Notes under the pieces: generated by a model
What the model was told of the DNA's origin: nothing
The model's database searches: none
The model's input: only the letters and a program-made list of their open reading frames with translations
DNA from: an uncultured archaeon
GTDB taxonomy: Archaea > Iainarchaeota > Iainarchaeia > Iainarchaeales > CSSED10-239
Direction: 5' to 3'
Length of the DNA: 32,000 bases
Assembly: GCA_964586355.1 (NCBI GenBank)
Contig: CAZPGO010000043.1
Coordinates: 1 to 32,000 of the forward strand
Program-made: the position numbers and the translations under genes
Shown here: piece after piece, positions 8,006-31,370 of the stretch
Layout of the letters: every line of letters starts with the position of its first letter
Position numbering within the stretch: position 1 is the first letter of the stretch

Positions 8006-8413
8006 ATGTATAAATTAAATTATCAAAAACTTATTGGGGCTTTTGTAATTTCTTTATCAATTATTTTGTTATTGTTATCGGTTTCTGAAATTTTTAATAA
8101 AGTGGATTATCTATCAGAATATAAATTATGTATTGAAGTTTCTGATTACTCTGCTGAAATGATAACAGAATGTAAAGCAAATGCATCAAGTGGTTTAGGT
8201 TTTACAATTAGATCTAACCAGATTGATTTAACAACTACTCAGTATTTACAAGTTTATCTTTCTGGTCTAATGATGGTATTAATTTCAATAATCTTTTTTA
8301 TAATAGGAAAATACATCTATTTATCTGAAAATAAAAAAGAAGTAGAAAGCAAACCAAAAAAGATTAATAAAAAATCAATACTCAAAAAAACAAAAAAGAA
8401 AAATAAAAAATAG
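8006..8413 (+). CDS. Hypothetical small membrane protein (2 TM helices, lysine-rich tail)
   Basis: ATG preceded by AGGATGTGA. Two hydrophobic helices (GAFVISLSIILLLLSV and GLMMVLISIIFFIIG) are followed by a K-rich C-terminus. I recognise no family. Confidence 0.5.
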   Translation: MYKLNYQKLIGAFVISLSIILLLLSVSEIFNKVDYLSEYKLCIEVSDYSAEMITECKANASSGLGFTIRSNQIDLTTTQYLQVYLSGLMMVLISIIFFIIGKYIYLSENKKEVESKPKKINKKSILKKTKKKNKK

Positions 8414-8418
8414 ATTTT

Positions 8419-10185
8419 TTACTTTAGTATTTCACTATAGGAAACAATATTTATTGAAGGATCTTTTGAAACTGAAAAGGATTTTGCTACAATAAATTTT
8501 GCTCCTTTTTTCTTTATTATTTCTAAAAGTTCTTTATTGATCTCTTTATTGGTTACTATAGCAAATAATTTTCCGGACTTAAAAGAGAGTAATTTCTTTT
8601 CTAGATCTTCTTCTAAAGCAGAACCTATTTTTCTTAGTTTGCCATTTAGCATTCTAGCTTCTTTTTTGTCTTTTATATCTTCTATGATTTTCTTAAAATT
8701 GTTTTTTAAATTTTCTGTTAACTTAGGCAAAACAATAGATTTTGGTTTCTGTTCTTCTTTTTGTAATGTTTTTTTTATTAGTTCGTTATTTACTTCTTGA
8801 GTTTTATTTGCAGTTTTTTCTTCTGGTTTATTACTTTGTGTTGTATTTAAAATCAAATTTGGTTTAGAGATATTTGAAATTGCTGAACTCTTTGAAATTG
8901 CTGCCTCTACAAGCTTATTGTCCACAACTTCTATTTTATCTAGATGTTGTGTTAATCTATTTACTTTTGGTTCTTCTTTTGGTCTTTCATTATTTTGTTG
9001 CCTAAAATTTGGTTTGAAGTCTTTATGGTAGTTTTTACTATGATTATTTCTGGAATCATTATCTCTATGTCTAAAACCATTTTGATCTTTTTTAACATCC
9101 ACTCTTTCTAGTCCAGGTATTTGTGATAACATTTGATCAAAAGGATCTGATTTCTCTGGTCTATAAGATGAATTTTCTGACTTATAAGAAGAATTTTGTT
9201 GATTTGGATTTTTTGGTATGAATTTACTGGACAAAAATTCTCTATTTTCTGCTGGTCTTGAATATACCTTATTTTGGTTTGTTGTTGAAAATTTTGTTGC
9301 TTTTACTATTCCTGTTTGTTTTGTAAAATTATTTGTTTCTTTTTCGAAATGGTTATTTAATTTTACATTTGAATAAGCTGATTTTATTTTTCTTCTTAGT
9401 GCTTGATTAATCTCTTTTTGTGTTAGTTCTTCTACTTCTTTACCATCTGGTGCTCTTGCAATATAATCAACTTTTATGCTTTTTAGTAATTGTTGTTGTT
9501 GTATCTCTGCACCTCTGTCTCCATCTAAAAAAATAGTAACAGTCTTTTTCTTACATATTTCTTCTAAAGTTTTAGGTATTCTAGCACCACCTGTTGCAAT
9601 TACATTAGTAAAGCCATATCTTAAAAGGTTCATAACATCAGCCCTACCCTCTACAACAATAATTTCATTACTACTTTCTATTGTGGGTCCTGCGGCTAAT
9701 TTTTCTGAACCGTATTGTATAATATCTTTTGTTTTAAAGGTATCCATTATCTCATCCATAAGTTCTCTAGTATCAGGAATTTCTTCTTGCATTAGTCTTC
9801 CTAATAATTCTATGGCTCTGGATTTTATTTGTTGTCTTTTTACTCCTCTAGTGTCTTCTATTTGTTTTACTCTAAAAAAAGCATCACAAGGTCCGACTTT
9901 TTCTATACTTTCAATAGATGCTGCTATGATTGCTGTTTCTACCATTGAAACACTGCAGGGTAGTTTTAAGATTCCTCTTACTTTATTATTGTTTTGATTA
10001 TATTCTATTTCTATTCTTCCGATTTTTCCGTTTTGCTGTAATTCTTTTATATCTAAATTAGATCCTAAAAGTCCTTCTGATTGTCCAAAAATAGCTCCAA
10101 TAACATCTGGTCTTTCTACTAAACCATTTACTTCAAAATCTGCCACTATCATATATTTGATTGTCTCTATATAGGTTTTTCCCAT
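8419..10185 (-). CDS. dnaG: Archaeal DnaG-type primase (Toprim), with long low-complexity insertion
   Basis: The N-terminus KYMIVADFEVNGLVERPDVIGAIFGQSEGLLG is the archaeal DnaG signature. The Toprim motifs are IIVVEGRADVMNLLRYGFTNVIATGG and FLDGDRGAE. GGGAGTGA SD. Residues ~270-490 are N/Q/K/S-rich low complexity. Confidence 0.88.
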   Translation of the reverse strand: MGKTYIETIKYMIVADFEVNGLVERPDVIGAIFGQSEGLLGSNLDIKELQQNGKIGRIEIEYNQNNNKVRGILKLPCSVSMVETAIIAASIESIEKVGPCDAFFRVKQIEDTRGVKRQQIKSRAIELLGRLMQEEIPDTRELMDEIMDTFKTKDIIQYGSEKLAAGPTIESSNEIIVVEGRADVMNLLRYGFTNVIATGGARIPKTLEEICKKKTVTIFLDGDRGAEIQQQQLLKSIKVDYIARAPDGKEVEELTQKEINQALRRKIKSAYSNVKLNNHFEKETNNFTKQTGIVKATKFSTTNQNKVYSRPAENREFLSSKFIPKNPNQQNSSYKSENSSYRPEKSDPFDQMLSQIPGLERVDVKKDQNGFRHRDNDSRNNHSKNYHKDFKPNFRQQNNERPKEEPKVNRLTQHLDKIEVVDNKLVEAAISKSSAISNISKPNLILNTTQSNKPEEKTANKTQEVNNELIKKTLQKEEQKPKSIVLPKLTENLKNNFKKIIEDIKDKKEARMLNGKLRKIGSALEEDLEKKLLSFKSGKLFAIVTNKEINKELLEIIKKKGAKFIVAKSFSVSKDPSINIVSYSEILK

Positions 10186-10322
10186 AAACTTTCACTCCCT
10201 TAAAAATATTTTTTAAGGATAGTTTTTAGTTGTTTAAAAATAGATTTTGTTTAAAAATTAGAAAATTATTTTTTACCAAAAACTTCTTATAAGCAAATAA
10301 AGTCATTTCCTATAAATAAACT

Positions 10323-10559
10323 TTAACACAGATCTATAATCTTTATGATCTTTTTATTAGACTTCTGTCCTTTAACAATTTCAATTTTGTATCCATAATC
10401 TTTAAAGGTTTGAATAATTTCTTTATTTGCTTTGCCTTTTATTGGTTGGCTATTTATTTTTAATTTGTAATTGTCTTTATCAATACAAATTATTTCTGGC
10501 GATTTACTAGAATTACAAATCACCTGTAAATTAATTACTTGATTTTTTGTAAAGTTCAT
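10323..10559 (-). CDS. DUF167 (YggU/UPF0235) family protein
   Basis: The 78-aa protein has KLKINSQPIKGKANKEIIQTF...IEIVKGQKSNKKIIKI, matching the DUF167 pattern (V.A.P..GKAN.E......V.I..G..S..K...I). Confidence 0.6.
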   Translation of the reverse strand: MNFTKNQVINLQVICNSSKSPEIICIDKDNYKLKINSQPIKGKANKEIIQTFKDYGYKIEIVKGQKSNKKIIKIIDLC

Positions 10560-10811
10560 CTTTGTAATTTTTTATAATTTTCTAATTTTTTTAAAATCTA
10601 TTTTTTTCTAAAAACTAAACTTTTTAATATACTAAATTATTTTTTTGATTTTTATTTTTAAGAACAATCTTTAAAACAATATTGTTCTTTTATTAAATAT
10701 CTATCAATAATATAATAATATAAGAAAACTATTATAAATGATATCTAATTTCAAAAAATAATAGACAGATAACACCCATTTTAAAATAAAAAGAACTAAA
10801 AGAGGTTAAAA

Positions 10812-11213
10812 ATGAAAAAAAACAAAGTAAAGGGGTCTAATGCTGAAAGAGAGCTTTTATTTATGCTTTTTGAGGAGGGTTTTGCTGTGTCAAGGGTTGC
10901 TGGTTCAGGTTGCTCAACTCTACCAACTCCAGATATTATTGCTGTAAAAAACAAAATTTCTGTTGCTATTGAGTGTAAGACAAAAATAGGGGATTACCTA
11001 AATATTAAAGAATCACAAATAGAGGAGCTAAAAACCTGGGAAAAAATGTCAAAATGTAAGTCATACATTGCTTGGAGGCTTGGTAAAGATGCATGGTATT
11101 TTTTGGAGTTAAAGGATCTTAAGAAAACAACAAAAGCATATTCTATAAAAAAAGAGGATATTATTAATAAGGGTATGACATTAAAGGATTTTATTTTTTT
11201 TGTTATGAAATAG
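10812..11213 (+). CDS. hjc: Holliday junction resolvase Hjc
   Basis: KGSNAERELLFMLFEEGFAVSRVAGSG...PDIIAVKN...AIECKT carries the Hjc/PD-(D/E)xK catalytic motif series (E, D, E.K). The 133-aa size fits. AGAGGT SD. Confidence 0.85.
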   Translation: MKKNKVKGSNAERELLFMLFEEGFAVSRVAGSGCSTLPTPDIIAVKNKISVAIECKTKIGDYLNIKESQIEELKTWEKMSKCKSYIAWRLGKDAWYFLELKDLKKTTKAYSIKKEDIINKGMTLKDFIFFVMK

Positions 11214-11297
11214 TTTTTTTCTTTTATAATATAAATATGTTTATATAGAGTTTCAATCAGATATATTATAGCAACAATAAAAAATGGGAAATAAATT

Positions 11298-11432
11298 ATG
11301 GCATATTTAGAACTAGAAGACATCATAAGAAGCTTAGAAATAGAAGCAAAAAAAGAAAAAAGTTTAAGAAAAAAATGTTTATATGATTCAGCCATAAAAA
11401 CATTAAAAGAACTTAAAGAAAGAAAAAGCTAA
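11298..11432 (+). CDS. Possible 44-aa micro-protein whose 3' end is the left direct-repeat copy
   Basis: Own translation: MAYLELEDIIRSLEIEAKKEKSLRKKCLYDSAIKTLKELKERKS*. Only a weak GGGAAA lies upstream. Coding status is uncertain. It is listed because its last 11 codons plus stop are duplicated at 13310-13346. Confidence 0.25.
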   Translation: MAYLELEDIIRSLEIEAKKEKSLRKKCLYDSAIKTLKELKERKS

Positions 11433-11433
11433 T
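11397..11433 (+). repeat. Left copy of 37-bp perfect direct repeat AAAACATTAAAAGAACTTAAAGAAAGAAAAAGCTAAT
   Basis: Direct string comparison shows it is identical to 13310-13346. Confidence 0.95.
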
Positions 11434-11845
11434 GTTGACAAGATCTTAATAAAATTGTAGCAAAAAGAACCCCTGTTGGCATTGCAACCATAACAGCAAA
11501 AGGGGCCTTCTCTTTTTCTGCCATATTGGGCACAAAATTTGGATCTCTTCTTTTTATTTCAAATTCACGAGCTCTAACGATTTTTTCGGGAACTTTTTTT
11601 CCTAAAGCAACACTTTTTAGAACACTTTCTAAAATAGCTTGTACTTCTGGAGCACTTTTTTTTGCTAATTGGGCCTCAAGTATTTTAACTGCTTTTCTTT
11701 TAACAATTGCTTGATTTTTAACTGCTTGTTTTTTTAATACCTCTAACTCGGCAACTGTCCAAGCAGTTGTTTTTTTCTTTTCTGCAACAACTTTTGTACC
11801 TGCAGAAGTTGTTCTAAATTTTACTGTTGGTTTTCTATATTTCAT
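11429..11845 (-). CDS. Hypothetical A/V/K-rich protein with C-terminal hydrophobic (tail-anchor-like) segment
   Basis: ATG preceded by a strong GGAGGCGGA SD. The 138-aa product ends in APFAVMVAMPTGVLFATILL. Its composition (Ala/Val/Lys) and codon G+C differ from the neighbouring N/I/K-rich genes. I recognise no family. The TAG stop lies inside the left repeat. Confidence 0.6.
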   Translation of the reverse strand: MKYRKPTVKFRTTSAGTKVVAEKKKTTAWTVAELEVLKKQAVKNQAIVKRKAVKILEAQLAKKSAPEVQAILESVLKSVALGKKVPEKIVRAREFEIKRRDPNFVPNMAEKEKAPFAVMVAMPTGVLFATILLRSCQH

Positions 11846-11979
11846 TTAATAATCCGCCTCCACCAAATAATACAAACCTCTAAAAAAATAGAAATCCGAT
11901 ATATATATATCGAATATGGTGTGATTTGATTTTGCCCAAGAATTTGTGCATAAAGAATAGATTTATTATTGTATCTAAA

Positions 11980-13134
11980 TTATAAAAAAAAGTCTACGCC
12001 ATTTGCAAGAATTTTATTTTTTATTTTTAGAGTATCAAATAATTCTTTTTGCTTATCTTTTATATCTTGATTGTATTTTGCCTCAACTATAGTATCTTTA
12101 TATTTAAAATCTATTTCAATATTATTTTCTCTTATAAATCTAGGGCTATTTTCTTTTATTTTTAAAAAAACCAAATTTTCGTAAATGGAACCTAAATCTC
12201 TAAAACCAGTAACTACATTTTTAATTCCAACGTCTGCACAATATATCTTTTTATTATCTACAATTCTTTCATTCAAACTTTTAGCATCTTTTTCTATAAT
12301 ATAAAACAAATAAGTTTCTTTGAAATAATCAATATAATTTTTAACTGAATTCTTACTAATTCCTAAAATATGACTTAATTTATTATAAGATATTGGCTTA
12401 CCTACTCTCTCACAAAGCAATCTGAATAAATTTTCAATAGCATCATTATCTCTTAAATTATATTTTGCTATTATGTCCTTATATATTATGTTTTTTGTTA
12501 AATTTATTATATATTCTGGATCTTTTGTAAGAACATATTCTGGCATGCCCCCATATTCCATATACTCTTCAAAATATTTTTCTAAAAGATATTTTTCTGA
12601 TTTTTTTGGGGCATAATTTTTAAAAAATAAAAATTCTTGAAAATCCAGTGGTTTTACTTCTAATACTCTACTTCTTCCAGTTAATAGTGCCTTTTTATCA
12701 ATTAATTTATTTGCAGAAGAGGATGTGGCAAATATCTTACTATTTCCCAAATCATATAAATTCTTAAGTTCTTCTTTAAAAGAATCCTTATATGTGACTT
12801 CATCAAAAAACAAATAAATTTTTTCGTTTATCTTTAAATTATTTATCTTTCTAAACTCTCTAACTAAATCAGATATACTCTTATCTCTAAAAGAGAAAGA
12901 ATCTAATGACAAATAAAGTATTTTCTTTGCATTTACATTTTGATCATTTATTAGAAAAAAAATCAATTGTTTAAGTAAAGTTGATTTTCCTACCCTTCTA
13001 AGACCAGTCAATAAAATAATATCTTTATTATTTAAATTGCGTTCTAAAAAAGACAAATATTTCTCTCTTTTAATGCCCATTAGTTTATACTTTTCTTCCC
13101 ACCACGGATTGAATTCATAAAATAGTTCATTCAT
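11980..13134 (-). CDS. AAA+ ATPase of the AAA_14/DUF4143 (COG1373) family
   Basis: Walker A LLTGLRRVGKSTLLKQL and Walker B YLFFDEV. A central wHTH-like segment is LSHILGISKNSVKNYIDYF. The C-terminal YENLVFLKI...EIDFKYKDTIVEAKY fits the DUF4143 PD-(D/E)xK-like pattern. Confidence 0.85.
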   Translation of the reverse strand: MNELFYEFNPWWEEKYKLMGIKREKYLSFLERNLNNKDIILLTGLRRVGKSTLLKQLIFFLINDQNVNAKKILYLSLDSFSFRDKSISDLVREFRKINNLKINEKIYLFFDEVTYKDSFKEELKNLYDLGNSKIFATSSSANKLIDKKALLTGRSRVLEVKPLDFQEFLFFKNYAPKKSEKYLLEKYFEEYMEYGGMPEYVLTKDPEYIINLTKNIIYKDIIAKYNLRDNDAIENLFRLLCERVGKPISYNKLSHILGISKNSVKNYIDYFKETYLFYIIEKDAKSLNERIVDNKKIYCADVGIKNVVTGFRDLGSIYENLVFLKIKENSPRFIRENNIEIDFKYKDTIVEAKYNQDIKDKQKELFDTLKIKNKILANGVDFFL

Positions 13135-13309
13135 ATATTACATCTGTAACAAACAGTATATAAAGGTTGCCTTTACTAAAGTCCACCAACACTGGTTTGT
13201 AGTTTTTAGTAATTACAACTAATAATCCTTTAATCTATGCAGTTAAAAATAGTGTGCATAAATTTTTTTACAAAAAGTTCAAAAAAAAGGTTTATATTAG
13301 TCTACTATT

Positions 13310-13346
13310 AAAACATTAAAAGAACTTAAAGAAAGAAAAAGCTAAT
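13310..13346 (+). repeat. Right copy of 37-bp perfect direct repeat
   Basis: Identical to 11397-11433. The frame equivalent to the left-copy ORF is closed by TAG at 13298-13300, so this copy is an orphan fragment. It ends 15 nt before the pth2 stop codon. Confidence 0.95.
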
Positions 13347-13361
13347 TGTTTTTTAAAAATA

Positions 13362-13709
13362 TTATAACAATTTATATTTTTTTGTAAACTGATCTATTTC
13401 AGTTTCTTTAATAGGCCCAATACCAAGGCAAGTAATGTCTGGTCCAGGTAATTGAGTCAATCCTGCGTCTTTTATTAAAACACAAGGAAATCTATTTTTT
13501 ATGGATTGATAAAGCTCTAATAGCTCTGTTTTTGATTCTATCTTTAAAACAACTTTTTTCTGACCATAAGTAAGCCAAGAATCGACAGCTTTAGGGTCTT
13601 TTTTAGAAGTTAGAAGATAACTTTCTATTGCTGCATGCCCTGCTTGTGCTGCTATTTTGCCTTTCCCTAGTTTTAGATCGTTTCTTACTATTATTACTTG
13701 TTTATACAT
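13362..13709 (-). CDS. pth2: Peptidyl-tRNA hydrolase, archaeal type (Pth2)
   Basis: The 115-aa protein has KQVIIVRNDLKLGKGKIAAQAGHAA, KVVLK and DAGLTQLPGPDITCLGIGP, which are Pth2 hallmarks. Confidence 0.88.
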   Translation of the reverse strand: MYKQVIIVRNDLKLGKGKIAAQAGHAAIESYLLTSKKDPKAVDSWLTYGQKKVVLKIESKTELLELYQSIKNRFPCVLIKDAGLTQLPGPDITCLGIGPIKETEIDQFTKKYKLL

Positions 13710-13746
13710 GTTTTTCTAATATAAAAGTATATTTAAATGATGAAAA

Positions 13747-14103
13747 TCATTCATCCTCTGATTCAAACTCTGGACTTTCATCACTACTATTATCTATTCC
13801 TAAAAAGGTCATAGTAAATGTTGTTTGAAGTCTGCCCCACATTGAGGTTATTTGTTTTGTTTCGTTTAAGTATATGGTTGTATTAAACTCATATCCTCTA
13901 TGCTCATTTTTTACTAAATAGTGTCTATCATATTCTATTTGTGCTCCATTTGATATTAAATTAACAAGTTTAAAAATATAAACACCATCATGTAATCCAA
14001 ACTCATCACCAACAGACACAACTTCTTCTGTTTCTTCTTTTGTATTTTTTGATGGACGTTCCATATCTGTTACTTTTTTTAGTATATGAAATCTTGCTTT
14101 CAT
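13747..14103 (-). CDS. Hypothetical protein with acidic C-terminal tail
   Basis: A 118-aa ORF with an ATG start, packed between kae1 and pth2. The tail is DNSSDESPEFESEDE. I recognise no family. Confidence 0.45.
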   Translation of the reverse strand: MKARFHILKKVTDMERPSKNTKEETEEVVSVGDEFGLHDGVYIFKLVNLISNGAQIEYDRHYLVKNEHRGYEFNTTIYLNETKQITSMWGRLQTTFTMTFLGIDNSSDESPEFESEDE

Positions 14104-14187
14104 TATTGATCTTTCTCCATTTTTAGTGTTTTAAATATTTATTTCTAATAAACTTAAGAATAATATGTTTATAAATATAATTATTTT

Positions 14188-15186
14188 TCACCAATTTATA
14201 ATAACTTGGTCAGTTCTAAATTTTGGGTTGATTTTTGTATTTTTAAGAGACATTCCTTTTTTATAATTATTAAGATAATGCTTTAGTCCAAGATCTGCAA
14301 TAATCAAACCATTATCTACGCACACAACCATTGGTGGTACAAATAATTTAATTTTATTTTGCTTACAAAATATTTCTAACATTTCTTTTAGGGCTTTACT
14401 TGCTGCAACTCCACCAATTACCATTACTTCTTTTTTTTTTGTGTAAGAAAGTGCTCTATCAGTTACTTCTAACAACATGGCGTAAGCTGTGTGCATAAAG
14501 GAATAAATTAGTTCTTCTTTTGGATATTTGTCTATTAATTTTTTTGAATGTGTTAATAATCCTGAAAAGTTCAGATCCATTCCTTTTACTGAGTATGGTA
14601 GTTCTATATATTTAGATCTATCTGCCTTAAAATAAATTTCATCTAAAACAGGGCCACCAGGAAATCCATAGCCTAAATCTCTTGCAAAGCTATCAAATAA
14701 ATTACCTATACCAATATCTAGTGTTTCTCCAATTATTTTATATCTATTTTCGTCTTTTGCGATTATTTGTGTGTTTGCTCCTGAGGTGTAAATTATAAGA
14801 GGATCTTTTGCGTTTAATAGGGTTTTGCCTATTTCTATGTGGGAGATGCAATGATTTACTCCAATAATTGGTTTGTTATACTTAATTGCTAATACTCTAG
14901 CAACAGTTGCAGAGACTGATAAACAAGGGCCTAATCCTGGACCTTGTGAAAAAGAAATAATATCTATATCTTTTAGTTTTAGGTTTGCTTTTTCTAGTGC
15001 GGAGATTAAAACATTAATAACATTTTCATAATGGAATATGGACACATCAAATGGTTTTAGTCCTTCTCCATCTTTAGAAACAAATTGTTTTTTTTCATTT
15101 GCAAGTATATTGCCATAATTATCAATTATTCCAACTCCTATGGTGTGAGCAGTACTTTCTATTCCTAAACATATTTTTTTTTTCAT
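14188..15186 (-). CDS. kae1: tRNA N6-adenosine threonylcarbamoyltransferase Kae1 (KEOPS catalytic subunit), not fused to Bud32
   Basis: LGIESTAHTIGVGI (ASKHA phosphate-1 motif), the metal-binding HCISHIE, and GGVAASKALKEM. The 332-aa length corresponds to the Kae1 domain only. Confidence 0.9.
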   Translation of the reverse strand: MKKKICLGIESTAHTIGVGIIDNYGNILANEKKQFVSKDGEGLKPFDVSIFHYENVINVLISALEKANLKLKDIDIISFSQGPGLGPCLSVSATVARVLAIKYNKPIIGVNHCISHIEIGKTLLNAKDPLIIYTSGANTQIIAKDENRYKIIGETLDIGIGNLFDSFARDLGYGFPGGPVLDEIYFKADRSKYIELPYSVKGMDLNFSGLLTHSKKLIDKYPKEELIYSFMHTAYAMLLEVTDRALSYTKKKEVMVIGGVAASKALKEMLEIFCKQNKIKLFVPPMVVCVDNGLIIADLGLKHYLNNYKKGMSLKNTKINPKFRTDQVIINW

Positions 15187-15226: not shown

Positions 15227-17203
15227 TTAATTTCTGTTATTATAACCAGTATATAATTCTTCTAGGGTATTTACATTTGTGTTATTTGGATAAAGTACTC
15301 TAGATACAGAAGTTTTACAATCACAAAGTCCTTGTTTACAACAGTTATAAAGTGGTCTTAATTTTTCATACTCTTTATTATTTGGATTACATAGTTTATC
15401 ATAAACTACAAAACTATTATCTAGGTCCTTAAACTCACAATAATACCCATCAAAACAACTATAACATTTTTTTGTGCTTACCCAATATAGAATATTATTT
15501 TTTTCTATTGTTTTATATTCTTCTTCTGAAAATAATGTAATTCTGTCTTGTAAGATTCCTTGTTGAAAGGTCAAATACTCATCTAGATTTTCTAGCCCTA
15601 CTTTTTTTCCTACCATATGTAGAATTTGATCTCTAGAAGATATGTTTCCTAAATATAATGCTGCATGAGTATATTGTCTATCTCGTCCTACCATATCTTT
15701 TTTTTTTACAAGTTCTAAATTGTTTATGGAATTATCATTTAGTCTATAAAGATAATCACTTGTTGGAATATAGATTCCTAAGATCACTCCAGGAATTAAG
15801 GTTAATGGCAAATTACTTTCTTTTTCCCAAATTACTTTGTTTTCATATATTAGATCCCAAGCATTTGCTTTTATGTAGTTAAGACCAAAAATATTTCTTG
15901 CAGTATCTACTGCAACTTTTGAGCATAAAAAGGGTCTTGGGAGATATAAGCCATTACAGTTTTTATTTGTTTGATCTATTACACAATTATATTTTAAAAT
16001 ATCTGAATTAGAGAGTCTTTTTTCAGGGACTATAATGGTTTTTGTTTCTGGTAATGGACACATTTGTAATAAAAAATTATTATCATTTGGATATACGGTT
16101 ATAGAAACAGAACCACCTAATCCTGGTTTTTCTAAATCTCCAACAGTTTCTGCTAATAATGATGGATCGTATTCTCCAGATAAGCATCTCATTCTATATG
16201 TGGATTTATAATAGGTTGTGTAATTTGCTATAATTTTGTCTTTTAAAGTTGTATTATTATATCTTTGTGTGCTCAAAACCTCTTTTAAAACAAGATATTT
16301 TGCCATCTTTACTGCAATTTGTAGATCTGCATTATTACTTACTTTTTCATCATAGTTTGTTATTCCAAATCTAAATCTTATTGGCATAGAGGTATATTTG
16401 TATGAAAAACAAGTAGCATAAAAAAGGTCTACAGAGTCATGATGTGTTTGAAGCAAATTATACCAATTTGAAATAATTCTATTTAGCTCAAATGGTTTGT
16501 TTGAGTTTGCTGATTCTGATTCAATAACTTTAATTATATTTTTATATAAAACTGCTCCCATAAGAGCACTAGCATAGGGATTTCTGTTTTCTTTTATTTC
16601 GTTTGCTAGTTGCCTATATTCAGAATCTGAGTCTATAATGTTATTTTTGCCTCCAAATGTGGATCCATATCTGTTTCTTTGTATATCTTCATTTATGGTT
16701 AAAAGATCTGTTTCTTTAAAGATAGATTCTAAGTATTTTGTATTTCTGAGTTTAGATTCTTTAGAAAGAACAATATCATTATACCAAACAGGACCTATTT
16801 GACCAATACCTTTAAACAAATTATCAGAACTTATAAGACCTATTCTTTGATTTTTATTTTTCCAAGCAGAGCACCCAGATTCTGCTGACATCATTGCAAA
16901 GTATTGAACGGTTTCTTCTTCTGTAAATTTTAAAGTGTTTGCAATAGTAAAAACTATTCTTAAAAAATCATCTTGACAGTTTTGATAATCACCAACCGCT
17001 TTATCTATCTGCCCACTAATCATTTCTTTTAGTGCTGTTTTTCTTGAAGGTCTTAGATCAAAATCATCAAGATAATTATCAATTACAAGCTCATAATCTT
17101 GCTCTGTGTTTTGTCTATTCGGCTCATTTGGTAAAGATGCATTTATATTAACACTAAACAAAAGCAAAAATAGTAAAGGTATTATGTATTTTTTAAAGAT
17201 CAT
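15227..17203 (-). CDS. Secreted multidomain protein: SLT-like lysozyme motif, Cys/His papain-like (NlpC/P60-like) domain and Cys-rich tail
   Basis: Signal peptide MIFKKYIIPLLFLLLFSVNINA. FAMMSAESGCS...FKGIGQIGPVWYNDI resembles the lytic transglycosylase E-S...GLMQ motifs. Residues ~420-545 (FLCSKVAVD...YTHAALYLGN) are paralogous to the next gene. Eight Cys lie in residues 580-629. The CDS itself is solid; the domain calls are by eye. Confidence 0.65.
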   Translation of the reverse strand: MIFKKYIIPLLFLLLFSVNINASLPNEPNRQNTEQDYELVIDNYLDDFDLRPSRKTALKEMISGQIDKAVGDYQNCQDDFLRIVFTIANTLKFTEEETVQYFAMMSAESGCSAWKNKNQRIGLISSDNLFKGIGQIGPVWYNDIVLSKESKLRNTKYLESIFKETDLLTINEDIQRNRYGSTFGGKNNIIDSDSEYRQLANEIKENRNPYASALMGAVLYKNIIKVIESESANSNKPFELNRIISNWYNLLQTHHDSVDLFYATCFSYKYTSMPIRFRFGITNYDEKVSNNADLQIAVKMAKYLVLKEVLSTQRYNNTTLKDKIIANYTTYYKSTYRMRCLSGEYDPSLLAETVGDLEKPGLGGSVSITVYPNDNNFLLQMCPLPETKTIIVPEKRLSNSDILKYNCVIDQTNKNCNGLYLPRPFLCSKVAVDTARNIFGLNYIKANAWDLIYENKVIWEKESNLPLTLIPGVILGIYIPTSDYLYRLNDNSINNLELVKKKDMVGRDRQYTHAALYLGNISSRDQILHMVGKKVGLENLDEYLTFQQGILQDRITLFSEEEYKTIEKNNILYWVSTKKCYSCFDGYYCEFKDLDNSFVVYDKLCNPNNKEYEKLRPLYNCCKQGLCDCKTSVSRVLYPNNTNVNTLEELYTGYNNRN

Positions 17204-17259: not shown

Positions 17260-18021
17260 CTACTTTCTTGGTAAAATGATCTCAATTAACTCGTTTTCTT
17301 CCAAATATTTATTTATTTCAAAGATCTGCACTTTTTCTTTTTCTAGGCTTATAACAGATTGGTTATTATCTATTTTTCCTACATATAAAACAACATGTGT
17401 ATAATCATATTCTGATAGATTTAAAAGATTTAAAAAATCTTTATTTTCTTTTGTTTTTATTCCTAAGATAGATCCTTCTGGTATTTGTGAATTATCTATT
17501 TTATTGTCTTTATATTTATTCCAAACAACAATATTATTTTCTTTTGTATTTAAAAGCCAAGCATGGTCTAAATCATAATTGATATTATAAACTTTTTCTG
17601 CAAGAATTACTACTAGTTGTGCACAATAGTTGTTTTTTTTTATATAAACTCCTTGACAGATTTCTCCAACTTTACATTCTCCAATTGCTTTTATAATTTC
17701 TTCTGAAAGTATTCTTTCTGGAATCACCACATTTTCTTTTTTAAGATTTCTTTCAAAACTATTAAAAAAATGTAAAAAATCATAATCTATTATTGTTGGT
17801 ATTTTTGAAAGTATTTTTTGAGAAACAGTAAACAAATCTAAAATAATCTGTTTATCTTCTTCTATTTCTATTTGTTCTGATTCTACTTCTTGTGCATAGC
17901 AATTACTTAAAAACAGAATTACAATTAATAAGAGTAATATTTTTTTCACTAATTTTCTACCTTTTTTGTATTTTCTAAAGATTTTAGTTCTAAAATGTTT
18001 ATAAATTGATTTTTTATACAA
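17260..18021 (-). CDS. Secreted or membrane-anchored Cys/His papain-like (NlpC/P60-like) protein, paralogue of the C-terminal half of 15227-17203
   Basis: NYCAQLVVILAEKVYNINYDLDHAW...IPEGSILGI...YDYTHVVLYVGK aligns with FLCSKVAVDTARNIFGLNYIKANAW...IPGVILGI...RQYTHAALYLGN. The track start at 18021 is TTG. An alternative GTG at 17947-17949, preceded by AGGTAG, would give a classical signal peptide (M)KKILLLLIVILFLSNCYA and leave a 113-bp divergent promoter region with cysS. Confidence 0.62.
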   Translation of the reverse strand: MYKKSIYKHFRTKIFRKYKKGRKLVKKILLLLIVILFLSNCYAQEVESEQIEIEEDKQIILDLFTVSQKILSKIPTIIDYDFLHFFNSFERNLKKENVVIPERILSEEIIKAIGECKVGEICQGVYIKKNNYCAQLVVILAEKVYNINYDLDHAWLLNTKENNIVVWNKYKDNKIDNSQIPEGSILGIKTKENKDFLNLLNLSEYDYTHVVLYVGKIDNNQSVISLEKEKVQIFEINKYLEENELIEIILPRK

Positions 18022-24954: not shown

Positions 24955-26325
24955 TTACTTATTTTTAGAAAATACAGAATAAATATCATTAATAAAATTA
25001 ACAACTTTTGTTTGAAGGTTTTCAGTACTTACAAAATCAACACCTTCCTTTTTAAATTCATTCATAACATCTGTAATTATTTCAGGATTATATTCTTGAG
25101 ACACTAAAAAGGATTCTAGTTGAGATTTTGTGTATTTTTTTGCATATGGTTTTAAAAATTCAAATAAGAATCTAATTTGTTTCATATATTTTTCATACTT
25201 CTCTTTCTCTTTTTTTGATTCTATTTTTAAATTAAAATTTTTTGGCAAAGTTAGATTTTCTGAAGAGATTATGTTATTTCCTTTATTTGAATTATCATCA
25301 TTTAAACGATTAATATTTAATTTTTTTTGCCTTTTTTCTAAAACATCTATTTTTTTATAGATCTCATTTATTTGACCATAAACTTCTTTTAAGGACAAAA
25401 ATTCGTCATGAATTTTTGATAAGAAAAGCTTAGTCATTTTTTCATTTGCTGTGCTTGGTAAATTTGATTTTTTATTAAAATCAACATTATCTTCTTTAAT
25501 TAGGTTAGTTAATATGCTTTCAGCAACTTGTTTACTAAAACCATTTTCTACTAATAGTTTTTTTATAAATTCTGAGTCTGTTTTTATTTTTAATAAATAT
25601 CTAATAGTGTTTTTTATGTTGGTTATATGTTCTTGTTGTTTTTTTGCTTTTTTTAATACTGCCATTCTTTCTTGATTAAGTAGTTTTATATCTTTTATAC
25701 CAAGCAAATTTAAATAAAAAGACTGAGGTAGTCTAATAATCAAAAAACCTTCAATAAAGAACAAACAAAAAATAACAAAAGCTATTGCAAAAGGTATAAG
25801 TGTTTCTTTTAAAAATAAAAAATTAGGTAAAAGTATTATTAAAAAATAAACACCAATAGATAATATAAAACCAAATATCCAATAGATATAACGAACAGTT
25901 CTTATTTTTTTTATATGTTTAATAATATTTTCAGCAGTCTCAAAATCCATCCCAATATATTCTACAAAATGTTTTATTGATTCTTTTGAGTATTTTTCTT
26001 TTATTATAAAAAAAATTAATTTTTTAATAGTTACAACTAATTTATTTATTTGTGCCTCATTATTTTCTGAGTCTACAAGGTCTTCTAAAGCATTTAATTT
26101 AACTTTATTTTTTTTTGCTAATAACAAAAGACCTATTTTTGGAATTTTGGAAATCAGACAACCTACAAAAAAAAAGAGAAAAATAATTATTAATGGCAAA
26201 ACTAATTCTAGATACCAAATCTCTTTAATATTTGAAAAAAAGGACACATAATGTACTAACAAATAAATAATTATGGAAAATATAAGACCAAATATCCAAT
26301 AAAATAGTTTTTTATTTATAGCCAT
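24955..26325 (-). CDS. Hypothetical membrane protein with internally duplicated 2-TM plus helical module
   Basis: AGGTGT SD. YWIFGLIFSIIIYLL...(2 TM)...KESIKHFVEYIGMDFETAENIIKHIKK is repeated as YWIFGFILSIGVYFL...(2 TM)...DSEFIKKLLVENGFSKQVAESILTNLIK. A third soluble copy is KSQLESFLVSQEYNPEIITDVMNEFKK. Confidence 0.62.
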   Translation of the reverse strand: MAINKKLFYWIFGLIFSIIIYLLVHYVSFFSNIKEIWYLELVLPLIIIFLFFFVGCLISKIPKIGLLLLAKKNKVKLNALEDLVDSENNEAQINKLVVTIKKLIFFIIKEKYSKESIKHFVEYIGMDFETAENIIKHIKKIRTVRYIYWIFGFILSIGVYFLIILLPNFLFLKETLIPFAIAFVIFCLFFIEGFLIIRLPQSFYLNLLGIKDIKLLNQERMAVLKKAKKQQEHITNIKNTIRYLLKIKTDSEFIKKLLVENGFSKQVAESILTNLIKEDNVDFNKKSNLPSTANEKMTKLFLSKIHDEFLSLKEVYGQINEIYKKIDVLEKRQKKLNINRLNDDNSNKGNNIISSENLTLPKNFNLKIESKKEKEKYEKYMKQIRFLFEFLKPYAKKYTKSQLESFLVSQEYNPEIITDVMNEFKKEGVDFVSTENLQTKVVNFINDIYSVFSKNK

Positions 26326-30887: not shown

Positions 30888-31370
30888 ATGTTTGTCTTAT
30901 GTACAAAAAAAGAGTTAGAAAAAACAAAAAATTTTTTATATTCTAGATTTGGAATTAATAAAAATTACCTAAATAATTTTCTTTGTTATAAATATAAAAA
31001 AAGCTTATTTTTAATAACTAATGATAAAAAAGAGATCATACAAAAACTCATTTTTAAAAAAAACATAAGATCTCTAGGAATTGAAATTTTTTGCGATCTT
31101 AGACAATTAATTCCTAGTTCTTTAGGTTTTGGTGGTGTTTTAAAAATAGAGCAAATAAAAAGCAACTTTCTGATCTTAAATAGAGAACAAGCAATTTCTT
31201 TTTTTGAAAATGAAAATATTGATGCAAAAAAAATAGAATCTAAAAATTTATTGTCTTCTGGTTATGTTATTGGTATTTATAATAAAAAGATTATTGGAAC
31301 ACTTTATTATGATAAACTAAAAGAGATGTGCACACCTAATCTTTCTTTTGAAAATAAAAATATTAAATAA
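30888..31370 (+). CDS. Possible stand-alone PUA-like C-terminal domain of RsmF-type methyltransferases
   Basis: The ATG lies 3 nt after the methyltransferase stop, and the SD (AAGGAA) overlaps the upstream gene end. LILNREQAISFFENENID...SSGYVIGIYNKKIIGTLYYD resembles the L..eqa..yl.ge.i...GyV.v...g..lG pattern of RsmF C-terminal domains. The assignment is by eye only. Confidence 0.4.
   Translation: MFVLCTKKELEKTKNFLYSRFGINKNYLNNFLCYKYKKSLFLITNDKKEIIQKLIFKKNIRSLGIEIFCDLRQLIPSSLGFGGVLKIEQIKSNFLILNREQAISFFENENIDAKKIESKNLLSSGYVIGIYNKKIIGTLYYDKLKEMCTPNLSFENKNIK

Follow-up and report, generated by a model that had tools for sequence, protein, structure and literature searches.

A repeat-bounded accessory cassette abutting a conserved micro-gene in an uncultured member of the Iainarchaeota

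Integrase-less islands flanked by attachment (att) sites, of the type of cis-mobilizable elements (CIMEs), accrete beside the sites occupied by integrative and conjugative elements and integrative and mobilizable elements, as in Streptococcus thermophilus at the fda 3' end. In archaea, integrative elements are found at tRNA genes; these include elements with SSV-type and pNOB8-type integrases, and tycheposon-like islands with partial tRNA repeats. Archaeal integrons and clusters of attC sites lacking integron-integrases (CALINs) are also known (PMC9668308). DPANN archaea have very small genomes with few recognised mobile elements and defence systems, and their gain and loss of accessory genes are poorly understood. 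The present analysis concerns a 32-kb stretch of DNA (positions 1 to 32,000 of contig CAZPGO010000043.1, assembly GCA_964586355.1; termed the window below) from an uncultured archaeon that a scan of species-representative genomes with its peptidyl-tRNA hydrolase Pth2 placed in the Iainarchaeota/Diapherotrites, a DPANN lineage. Between the Holliday junction resolvase gene hjc and pth2, two copies of the 3' end of a 44-codon open reading frame (ORF), termed the micro-ORF, bracket two genes that encode an orphan protein, p138, and an ATPase of the PDC-S01 class. We conclude that a cassette has genuinely been inserted at the 3' end of this conserved micro-gene, that the insertion occupies a recurrent hotspot, that it is old and without a recombinase, and that its repeat has been kept uniform by conversion. 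Its kind is already known, namely that of integrase-less accessory cassettes flanked by target-derived repeats. The features that define the slot are the following; other loci are referred to by numbers preceded by L.

10812..11213, plus strand: hjc, Holliday junction resolvase (PF01870, E 2e-25), left flank of the slot with synteny conserved in all close relatives
11298..11432, plus strand: micro-ORF of 44 codons, a conserved, clade-restricted small-protein gene whose 3' end is the recombination target
11369..11433, plus strand: left repeat copy (exact over 11397-11433), in which the micro-ORF keeps its functional 3' end
13282..13346, plus strand: right repeat copy (exact over 13310-13346), a remnant of the micro-ORF 3' end that is displaced and decayed and is interrupted in frame by a TAG
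13347..13361, no strand assigned: native spacer of 15 nt that separates the stop region of the micro-ORF from the pth2 stop, compared with 13 nt in the empty locus L023
13362..13709, minus strand: pth2, peptidyl-tRNA hydrolase (PF01981, E 2e-37; synteny), right flank of the slot

The initial annotation had reported perfect 37-bp direct repeats around the two genes, and both coordinates and identity hold: the 37-mer AAAACATTAAAAGAACTTAAAGAAAGAAAAAGCTAAT occurs in exact copies at 11397-11433 and 13310-13346, both on the plus strand and with no mismatches, and no third copy exists in the window even when up to three mismatches are allowed. None of 100 dinucleotide-preserving shuffles matched the 37-mer with three mismatches tolerated. 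The left copy was also correctly recognised as the 3' end of the micro-ORF, of which it supplies codons 34-44 and the stop, and the same is true for the TAG (13298-13300) that closes the equivalent frame of the right copy and for the position of this copy, which ends 15 nt ahead of the pth2 stop codon (13362-13364). The length of the duplicated segment had been taken as 37 nt and needs to be revised to about 65-77 nt. A degraded extension to the left is present, with 89% identity over 65 nt between 11369-11433 and 13282-13346; in the 28 nt located 5' of the exact tract 21 of 28 positions match, a level that was reached by 9 of 200,000 random 28-mer pairs drawn from the window. When translated, the right copy reads KKGLY, a stop and STIKTLKELKERKS, and the left copy reads KKCLYDSAIKTLKELKERKS. 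Because of this extended match and its translation, the right copy is considered a decayed 3' piece of the micro-ORF and not a bare 37-mer.

Several trivial or different origins of the repeat were discarded. The structure recurs across independent assemblies and assemblers from at least four samples, which rules out an assembly artefact. A search for further copies of the 37-mer, which the initial annotation had proposed, returned only loci of the same strain, always with the same pair, and none in viral contigs, so that a dispersed repeat is ruled out as well. A dif/Xer-type site was dropped, since the repeat, as judged by eye, has no inverted-arm structure and is a copy of coding sequence. 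In the Logan assemblies of the window's strain (L003, L005, and L013; k = 31), contigs stop inside the 37-nt repeat from either side, but because any repeat longer than k breaks such assemblies, these breaks say nothing on excision.

The slot between the micro-ORF and pth2 varies widely among relatives. At least eight occupancy states were found within conserved flanks, which identifies the slot as a hotspot, and in six other species it is filled with different cargo. The contents of the slot in individual loci are as follows.

L023 and the distant L033: nothing between micro-ORF and pth2, the stops being 13 nt apart in L023; no tail repeat
L021 and L022: one GNAT gene; no tail repeat
L016: one membrane protein of ~250 amino acids; no tail repeat
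L018 and L019: the same ~250-amino-acid membrane protein and another PDC-S01 ATPase, 29% identical to that of the window; no tail repeat
L137-L140: three small ORFs (87, 93, and 126 amino acids); no tail repeat
L133: two paralogous membrane proteins; tail repeat of 32 nt
L014: five genes; three tail copies of 77 nt
L132: a homologue of p138 alone; no tail repeat

It had been predicted that removal of the insert together with one repeat copy would restore a compact junction, and this arrangement exists in L023 and L033, which provide the single-copy empty slot that was sought among relatives. Since it is found in the close relative L023 as well as in the distant L033, the empty state is considered ancestral. 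No empty site was detected within the window's own strain by exact-protein searches with Pth2, Hjc, the micro-ORF product, and the ATPase. In more distant relatives, the hjc-pth2 interval contains Fic and toxin-antitoxin-sized genes. The wide hjc-pth2 intervals of distant Iainarchaeota were not accepted as the same hotspot, because they contain a conserved GTPase and membrane proteins and therefore reflect a different core gene order. An apparent strain polymorphism between L137 and L139 was also discarded, as it corresponds to a difference in gene calling at loci with 99.95% identical DNA.

Repeat-flanked cassettes are present at the same position in two further lineages. A filled/empty pair with exact repeat boundaries is provided, for a sister cassette, by the near-conspecific loci L133 (1401-3850) and L016 (8001-9862), the flanks of which are 99.8% (left) and 98.4% (right) identical. 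L133 exceeds L016 by precisely 1030 nt of cassette and a second, 32-nt copy of the micro-ORF tail (31/32). This cassette contains a 240-amino-acid gene, the product of which is a 59% homologue of the adjacent resident membrane protein, whose gene is 97% identical in the two loci. The displaced fragment is located 16 nt from the stop of the resident gene, and the equivalent junction of L016 measures 12 nt. On its cassette side, the displaced copy of L133 consists of a tail fragment that has diverged strongly and has lost 18 nt internally, and a single crossover of a circle that carries its own partial target copy would predict exactly such a chimeric structure. In L014 (JBBABY010000007.1, locus at about 9727-11316), three 77-nt micro-ORF tails that are 93-96% identical bound two stacked cassettes, one with a 98-amino-acid gene and one with a 256-amino-acid gene. 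The two cassettes have a common 157-nt end that consists of the tail fragment and an 80-nt arm comprising the promoter and first codons; the distance from copy 2 to copy 3 is exactly 1000 nt, and the arm holds the start codons ATGGAGATGATTA (MEMI). The MEMI N terminus also opens the homologous resident gene of L019.

A perfect repeat might suggest a fresh event, but the insertion is old. A sister lineage represented by four assemblies (L094, L095, L100, and L101) is about 90% identical to the window and possesses the same cargo and the same junctions; identity over the locus ranges from 75% to more than 99% per segment, and the repeat of this lineage spans 74 nt with one mismatch. At four sites that distinguish the two lineages and at which sequence is kept in both copies, the copies agree inside each lineage in 4/4 cases, namely, TGTTTATAT versus TGTCTTTAT (two sites), GAACTT versus GAGCTT, and AAGCTAAT versus AAA(C/T)TAAT, with L132 serving as the outgroup for this comparison. 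The copies thus evolve in concert, and because the insertion is in addition shared with the sister lineage, the perfect 37-mer is no evidence of recency. Judged from these alignments, the insertion predates the split of the two lineages, and the simplest reading would be one ancestral insertion followed either by gene conversion between the copies or by repeated recombination with conspecific copies; the exchanged tracts would then cover 74 nt in the sister lineage and 37 nt in that of the window. Numbers of synonymous substitutions per site (dS) are 0.13-0.63 for the flanking core genes, and the ATPase gene, with 0.51, falls among them, in agreement with co-divergence. In four lineages, the identical tract measures 32, 37, 74, and 77 nt, and its right edge is always the micro-ORF stop codon; beyond the tract, identity falls sharply to about 75%. 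Archaeal transcription terminates at oligo-T, and the minus strand of the right repeat copy forms a T-rich tract immediately past the pth2 stop, as every retained fragment does behind its convergent gene. The retained fragment may hence double as the terminator of the convergent gene, and this role could help account for the survival of the 3' part; it cannot account for the substitutions common to both copies.

The target of the insertion has the properties of a protein-coding gene. The micro-ORF is located between hjc and pth2 in L014, L016, L018, L019, L021-L023, L030, and L033, with 50-86% amino-acid identity at loci where it was detected by tblastn, and an alignment of eight sequences has 16 invariant columns. 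In comparison with the sister lineage, its ratio of nonsynonymous to synonymous substitution rates (dN/dS) is 0.03 at a dS of 0.63. Only 12 protein clusters contain it, every one annotated as hypothetical. On the basis of these substitution data and its distribution, the micro-ORF is regarded as a real protein gene under constraint that is confined to its clade.

The 1876 nt between the copies contain two minus-strand ORFs, for proteins of 138 and 384 amino acids. The features of the insert are given next.

11429..11845, minus strand: p138, an orphan protein of basic character that ends in a hydrophobic anchor (residues 115-133) and is encoded by a fast-evolving cargo gene
11846..11979, minus strand: intergenic region with a putative GGAGG ribosome-binding site of p138 and a predicted AT-rich promoter region
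11980..13134, minus strand: AAA_14 plus DUF4143 (PD-(D/E)XK) ATPase of 384 amino acids (PF13173, E 1e-27; PF13635, E 2e-19)
13135..13281, minus strand: cassette arm, the region upstream of the ATPase gene, with TATA-like TTTATATA and the conserved motifs GGACTTTAGTAAAGGCAACC and GTAATTACTAAA

The ATPase belongs to the PDC-S01 class, since it consists of an AAA_14 P-loop domain followed by DUF4143 and matches PADLOC profile PDLC04787 with an E value of 8e-70. It is strongly constrained (dN/dS of 0.043), and solved structures akin to it were limited to marginal P-loop matches to thymidylate kinases. DUF4143 is listed within the PD-(D/E)XK nuclease superfamily (PMC3424549). PDC-S01 is reported to be among the commonest candidate single-gene defence systems, to be enriched in Archaea, and to have been transferred repeatedly; DPANN archaea are reported to be enriched in several such candidate systems (PMC12988326). 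From its domains and its distribution, the ATPase gene is a candidate single-gene antiviral defence gene that is horizontally mobile among DPANN archaea. The second protein, p138, matched no Pfam or PADLOC family, and among 5.8 billion proteins only three clusters of homologues were found (100%, 82%, and 66% identity); its dN/dS is 0.49 and its maximum Kyte-Doolittle score is 2.02. Its stop codon is overlapped, on the opposite strand, by the left repeat copy. A perfect 16-nt palindrome, CGATATATATATATCG, is located upstream of p138 at 11897-11912, and the sister lineage carries an AT-repeat related to this palindrome.

Each cargo gene has its own apparent expression signals. For the ATPase gene, the predicted TATA-like TTTATATA is placed at 13157-13164, 23-30 nt ahead of the ATG, and the motifs GGACTTTAGTAAAGGCAACC (13165-13184) and GTAATTACTAAA (13205-13216) are common to L094, L097, L102, and L103. 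In comparison with the sister lineage, the cassette arm is 75% identical and the ATPase ORF 91%, and outside the conserved motifs the arm evolves nearly neutrally.

The insert had been described as free of integrases and transposases and of terminal inverted repeats, and this was confirmed: Pfam and PADLOC scans identified neither enzyme, and a search for inverted repeats found no arm pair at the insert ends. There was also no recombinase anywhere in the 32-kb window in Pfam/PADLOC scans of the cargo and the previously unassigned ORFs, nor, according to precomputed Pfam annotation, in the fetched neighbourhoods of relatives. A transposon or insertion sequence does not account for the structure, which has no inverted repeats at its ends, no transposase family, and a duplication that consists of 32-77 nt of coding sequence. 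A foreign composition, for which windowed GC and tetranucleotide deviations had been suggested as a check, was not observed, the GC content being 0.259 in the insert and 0.263 in the window and the tetranucleotide distance of the insert being below the window mean. An origin from a virus or provirus was likewise rejected, as viral contigs contain no relatives of p138, the micro-ORF, or the ATPase. Rfam models matched no RNA family in the insert or the repeat (window 10000-14500).

It was initially proposed that the locus contains one two-gene insertion. Both genes indeed lie between the repeats, but they need not represent a single element, because L132 lacks the ATPase and because the ATPase is found alone elsewhere. 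L132 (Logan contig SRR26469842_6113, 1288 nt) has about 83-86% nucleotide identity to the window and the layout micro-ORF, p138 homologue (66% identical), 99 nt, and pth2. The block present in the window in addition to L132 spans 11852-13360 and comprises the ATPase gene, the arm, the fragment, and the spacer, homology being lost from about 11852. L132 is an intermediate state of the window's locus, and its non-native right junction suggests a separate deletion. ATPase relatives at 55-95% identity are encoded on contigs attributed to Woesearchaeota, Nanoarchaeota, and, in one case, Patescibacteria. Those of L097, L098, and L099 share 83-90% amino-acid and 81-85% nucleotide identity with the window in unrelated contexts, and since this homology comprises the ORF and about 46 nt upstream and no more, the ATPase gene reached this locus horizontally, in a unit the size of a single gene. 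It was added to p138 at a later time, unless L132 once possessed it and lost it by a deletion in which the repeat was not involved. An ATPase (P0051) with 69% identity is attributed to a metagenome-assembled genome of Patescibacteria, and an archaeal-type Pth2 (53% identical) is present in L047, on a contig binned as Saccharibacteria; these two cases represent either cross-domain transfer among episymbiont lineages or binning errors.

In other DPANN contigs, close relatives of the ATPase (66-90% amino-acid identity) are encoded directly downstream of tRNA-Thr(GGT), tRNA-Thr(CGT), or tRNA-Glu(TTC) (L097 7706-9197, L098 3503-4899, L102 1278-3672, L103 784-9276, L106, L110 4758-6152, L113 954-4609, L122 1434-4125, and L126). 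In the tRNA-Thr contexts, a copy of 9-14 nt of the tRNA-Thr 3' end follows 30-90 nt past the ATPase stop; L099 has such a copy although there is no tRNA gene within its contig, and no tRNA 3'-end copy was found downstream of the ATPase gene of L110 (tRNA-Glu). These loci are same-strand cassette arrays with a conserved cassette tail, which is formed by the motif GCGCTTTTnACTTTTGG, a hairpin, and a tRNA-3'-end-like sequence that reads CTGGAGCT or CCAGAAGCT in the tRNA-Thr arrays. The hairpin has a conserved loop, GTTTCGGT or GTTGCGGT, and 5 of its 7 stem pairs covary, with changes on both sides, in an alignment of eight sequences (alignment A2: L102 2751-2842, L122 2232-2323, L097 11338-11430, L103 6159-6224 and 7114-7179, L113 4524-4611, L098 4814-4900, and L099 1819-1897). 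It could function in termination, as a site of recombination, or as a small RNA; in the arrays, Rfam recognised only tRNAs and gave no match for the hairpin. The ATPase copy of the window is without the conserved tail. Direct repeats that bracket the ATPase gene in these arrays reach about 160 nt (L102). In L102, the ATPase cassette is the first after the tRNA, whereas in L122, which is 96-98% identical at the nucleotide level, it is the third and is preceded by NYN-like and radical-SAM-like cassettes; a repeat of ~140 nt is located ahead of each cassette. Cassette order is thus rearranged at the strain level. These arrays might be CALINs or constitute an integron-like system. Divergent paralogues of the AAA_14 type, with 25-33% identity to the ATPase of the window, cluster in groups of two or three in arrays that hold a close relative (L103 864-2126 and 7318-8589; L113 1061-2323; L097 3020-4309; L126 1-1233).

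The reading that we favour, with a probability of roughly 0.55, is that a cassette with a partial target copy of its own was inserted by a single crossover and that gene conversion followed, most likely through homologous recombination. The incoming molecule would be a circle with a partial copy of the micro-ORF tail, and one Campbell-type crossover would bring the accessory DNA between micro-ORF and pth2 and duplicate the last 65-77 nt of the micro-ORF. To the left, the micro-ORF would remain intact with the cargo now behind it; to the right, the displaced tail fragment would come to lie in native position, 15 nt from the pth2 stop. The host homologous-recombination machinery would act on the shared tail sequence both in this crossover and in later events, which may have comprised gene conversion between copies, the loss of cassettes through deletion from one repeat to the other, and the stacking of additional ones, and the perfect 37-nt tract would be a conversion or crossover tract. 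The right junction of the window indeed has the native geometry of fragment, 15-nt spacer, and pth2 stop, like the corresponding junction of L133. The initial annotation had interpreted the repeats as attL/attR; insertion at the 3' end of a target with target duplication is retained from this interpretation, but an exchange at a fixed site is not demonstrated, given the variable tract and the lack of a recombinase. The tract lengths of 32, 37, 74, and 77 nt are no less compatible with homologous recombination or gene conversion than with an attL/attR exchange at a fixed site, and the variable identical tract, the agreement of copies within lineages over 74 nt, and the ~160-nt repeats of the tRNA arrays are points favouring homologous recombination. 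Several observations weigh against the proposed crossover. All full-length contigs of the window's strain and of the sister lineage are filled, with neither a conspecific empty site nor an excised circle seen. With 32-37 nt, the tracts offer homologous recombination a short substrate; some archaea recombine with tracts as short as these, but no such case is known in DPANN archaea. The L133/L016 pair is equally readable as an old tandem duplication that L016 has lost, and L132 means that p138 and the ATPase may have arrived separately or that a second deletion, not mediated by the repeat, took place. Finally, the left edge of the fragment is at codon 22-23 in the window and L094 and also in L014 despite unlike cargo, which is more like a defined attachment site than like random homologous crossovers.

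This last point is shared with the explanation that the repeats are attL/attR of a cassette mobilised in trans, which appears possible but is the less probable account. A tyrosine recombinase encoded by the genome, a virus, or a plasmid would recognise a site of ~75 nt over the micro-ORF tail and would insert and excise integrase-less cassettes, akin to CIME-type elements or integron cassettes. Such an enzyme would explain target-derived direct repeats, empty relatives, and stacks with the newest cassette beside the intact target, as well as a left edge that differs by no more than about 5 nt between two lineages of unlike cargo and a right edge constantly at the stop codon; moreover, tRNA genes with 3'-end copies downstream, as seen beside the ATPase family, are the classic integrase target. 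However, no recombinase was found in the cassette, the window, or the fetched neighbourhoods, the length of the identical tract differs among lineages, the shared substitutions span 74 nt and thus extend far past a typical overlap region, the tRNA-array repeats are up to about 160 nt long, and viral contigs lack relatives of the 37-mer, the micro-ORF, p138, and the ATPase. An in-situ tandem duplication, by unequal crossing-over or slippage, from the middle of the micro-ORF to just before pth2, with cargo later replaced or diverged and with "empty" relatives that have lost one unit, is unlikely. It accommodates the homology of the L133 cassette gene to the neighbouring resident gene and the identical promoter/start-codon arm of the L014 cassettes, and repeat-mediated loss would yield exactly the state of L016; yet the window cargo has no paralogue at the locus, the ATPase gene is clearly horizontal with its 81-85% nucleotide identity to genes in unrelated DPANN contexts, the empty state of both L033 and L023 is ancestral, and the cassette side of the right copies is far more diverged than the flanks. 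Very improbable is self-mobilisation of the AAA_14/PD-(D/E)XK protein, by homing or transposition, at the 3' ends of tRNA and small genes. Units of 1.3-1.4 kb that contain only the ATPase gene do occur between a tRNA and its 3'-end copy (L097, L098/L106), the cassette changes its array position between the closely related L102 and L122, and the protein is strongly constrained, but cassettes that lack the ATPase (NYN-like, radical-SAM-like, 98-amino-acid gene, membrane proteins) have the same repeat architecture. In addition, there are no inverted repeats and no target duplication of fixed length, the window copy is without the tail conserved elsewhere, and the family is classed as a defence candidate from its genomic embedding.

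The surroundings of the slot are those of a housekeeping region, with genes for a DnaG-like Toprim protein, DUF167, Kae1/TsaD, aminoacyl-tRNA synthetases, a thermosome subunit, SRP54, and ribosomal proteins. The order Kae1-p118-pth2, followed after the slot by micro-ORF-hjc-DUF167-dnaG, is kept in relatives at 70-85% Pth2 identity. Several window ORFs matched no Pfam family, namely, 8006-8413 (135 amino acids), 15227-17203 (658), 17260-18021 (253), 24955-26325 (456), and 30888-31370 (160); the 658-amino-acid ORF is conserved in relatives, with 61% identity in L020.

The value of the locus lies in the combination of a recurrent gene-capture slot inside a housekeeping region with a scar, stacked cassettes, a filled/empty pair, and evidence of conversion. 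Among the known systems, CIME-type elements resemble it in their insertion at the 3' end of a protein gene that remains intact, in target-derived direct repeats, in cargo free of recombinases, and in tandem stacking. In contrast to these elements, no cognate integrase-bearing element was found here, the repeats are longer (65-77 nt), vary in the length of their identical part, and undergo concerted evolution, and a gene of 44 codons serves as target in a DPANN host. Archaeal elements at tRNA genes share the duplication of target 3' ends as direct repeats, and relatives of the ATPase are found beside tRNA-Thr and tRNA-Glu; unlike these elements, the present cassettes contain no integrase or split integrase, use a protein gene as target, and measure only 1-2 kb.

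The arrays of integrons and CALINs, including those of archaea (PMC9668308), are similar in that they consist of small, mostly one-gene cassettes in one orientation with the newest at the anchor, in that a repeated site separates the cassettes, and in that most arrays have no adjacent integrase. They differ in that the repeat between the cassettes described here is the coding tail of the anchor gene and not an attC hairpin, with no palindrome apparent by eye, in that the cassettes have their own promoters, and in that no intI was found in the window or the fetched loci. A rather doubtful extension of these parallels is that DPANN archaea collect genes in an integron-like manner without a dedicated integrase, or with an unrecognised one, so that cassettes bearing the anchor tail are captured, stacked, shuffled, and lost. 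If so, the anchors would be tRNA-Thr and tRNA-Glu in some lineages and the 44-codon gene in Iainarchaeota, cassettes would bring their own promoters, PDC-S01 ATPases would be among the most mobile cassettes, and the window would represent one fixed two-gene example. If the tRNA-anchored arrays work alike, this would amount to a general DPANN cassette system, which is testable with existing metagenomic reads.

Defence islands and hotspots flanked by core genes are also comparable, as they too provide a variable slot among housekeeping genes with defence-type cargo, here PDC-S01 ATPases in two forms; most of those described have no scar, whereas the duplicated gene tail of the present slot gives cassette boundaries at base resolution. 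With PDC-S01 as defined in PADLOC (COG1373), the ATPase shares the domain architecture and a strong profile match, and the gene itself is no different. What the present analysis adds for this family is a base-resolution view of the embedding of one copy, together with the movement of related copies.

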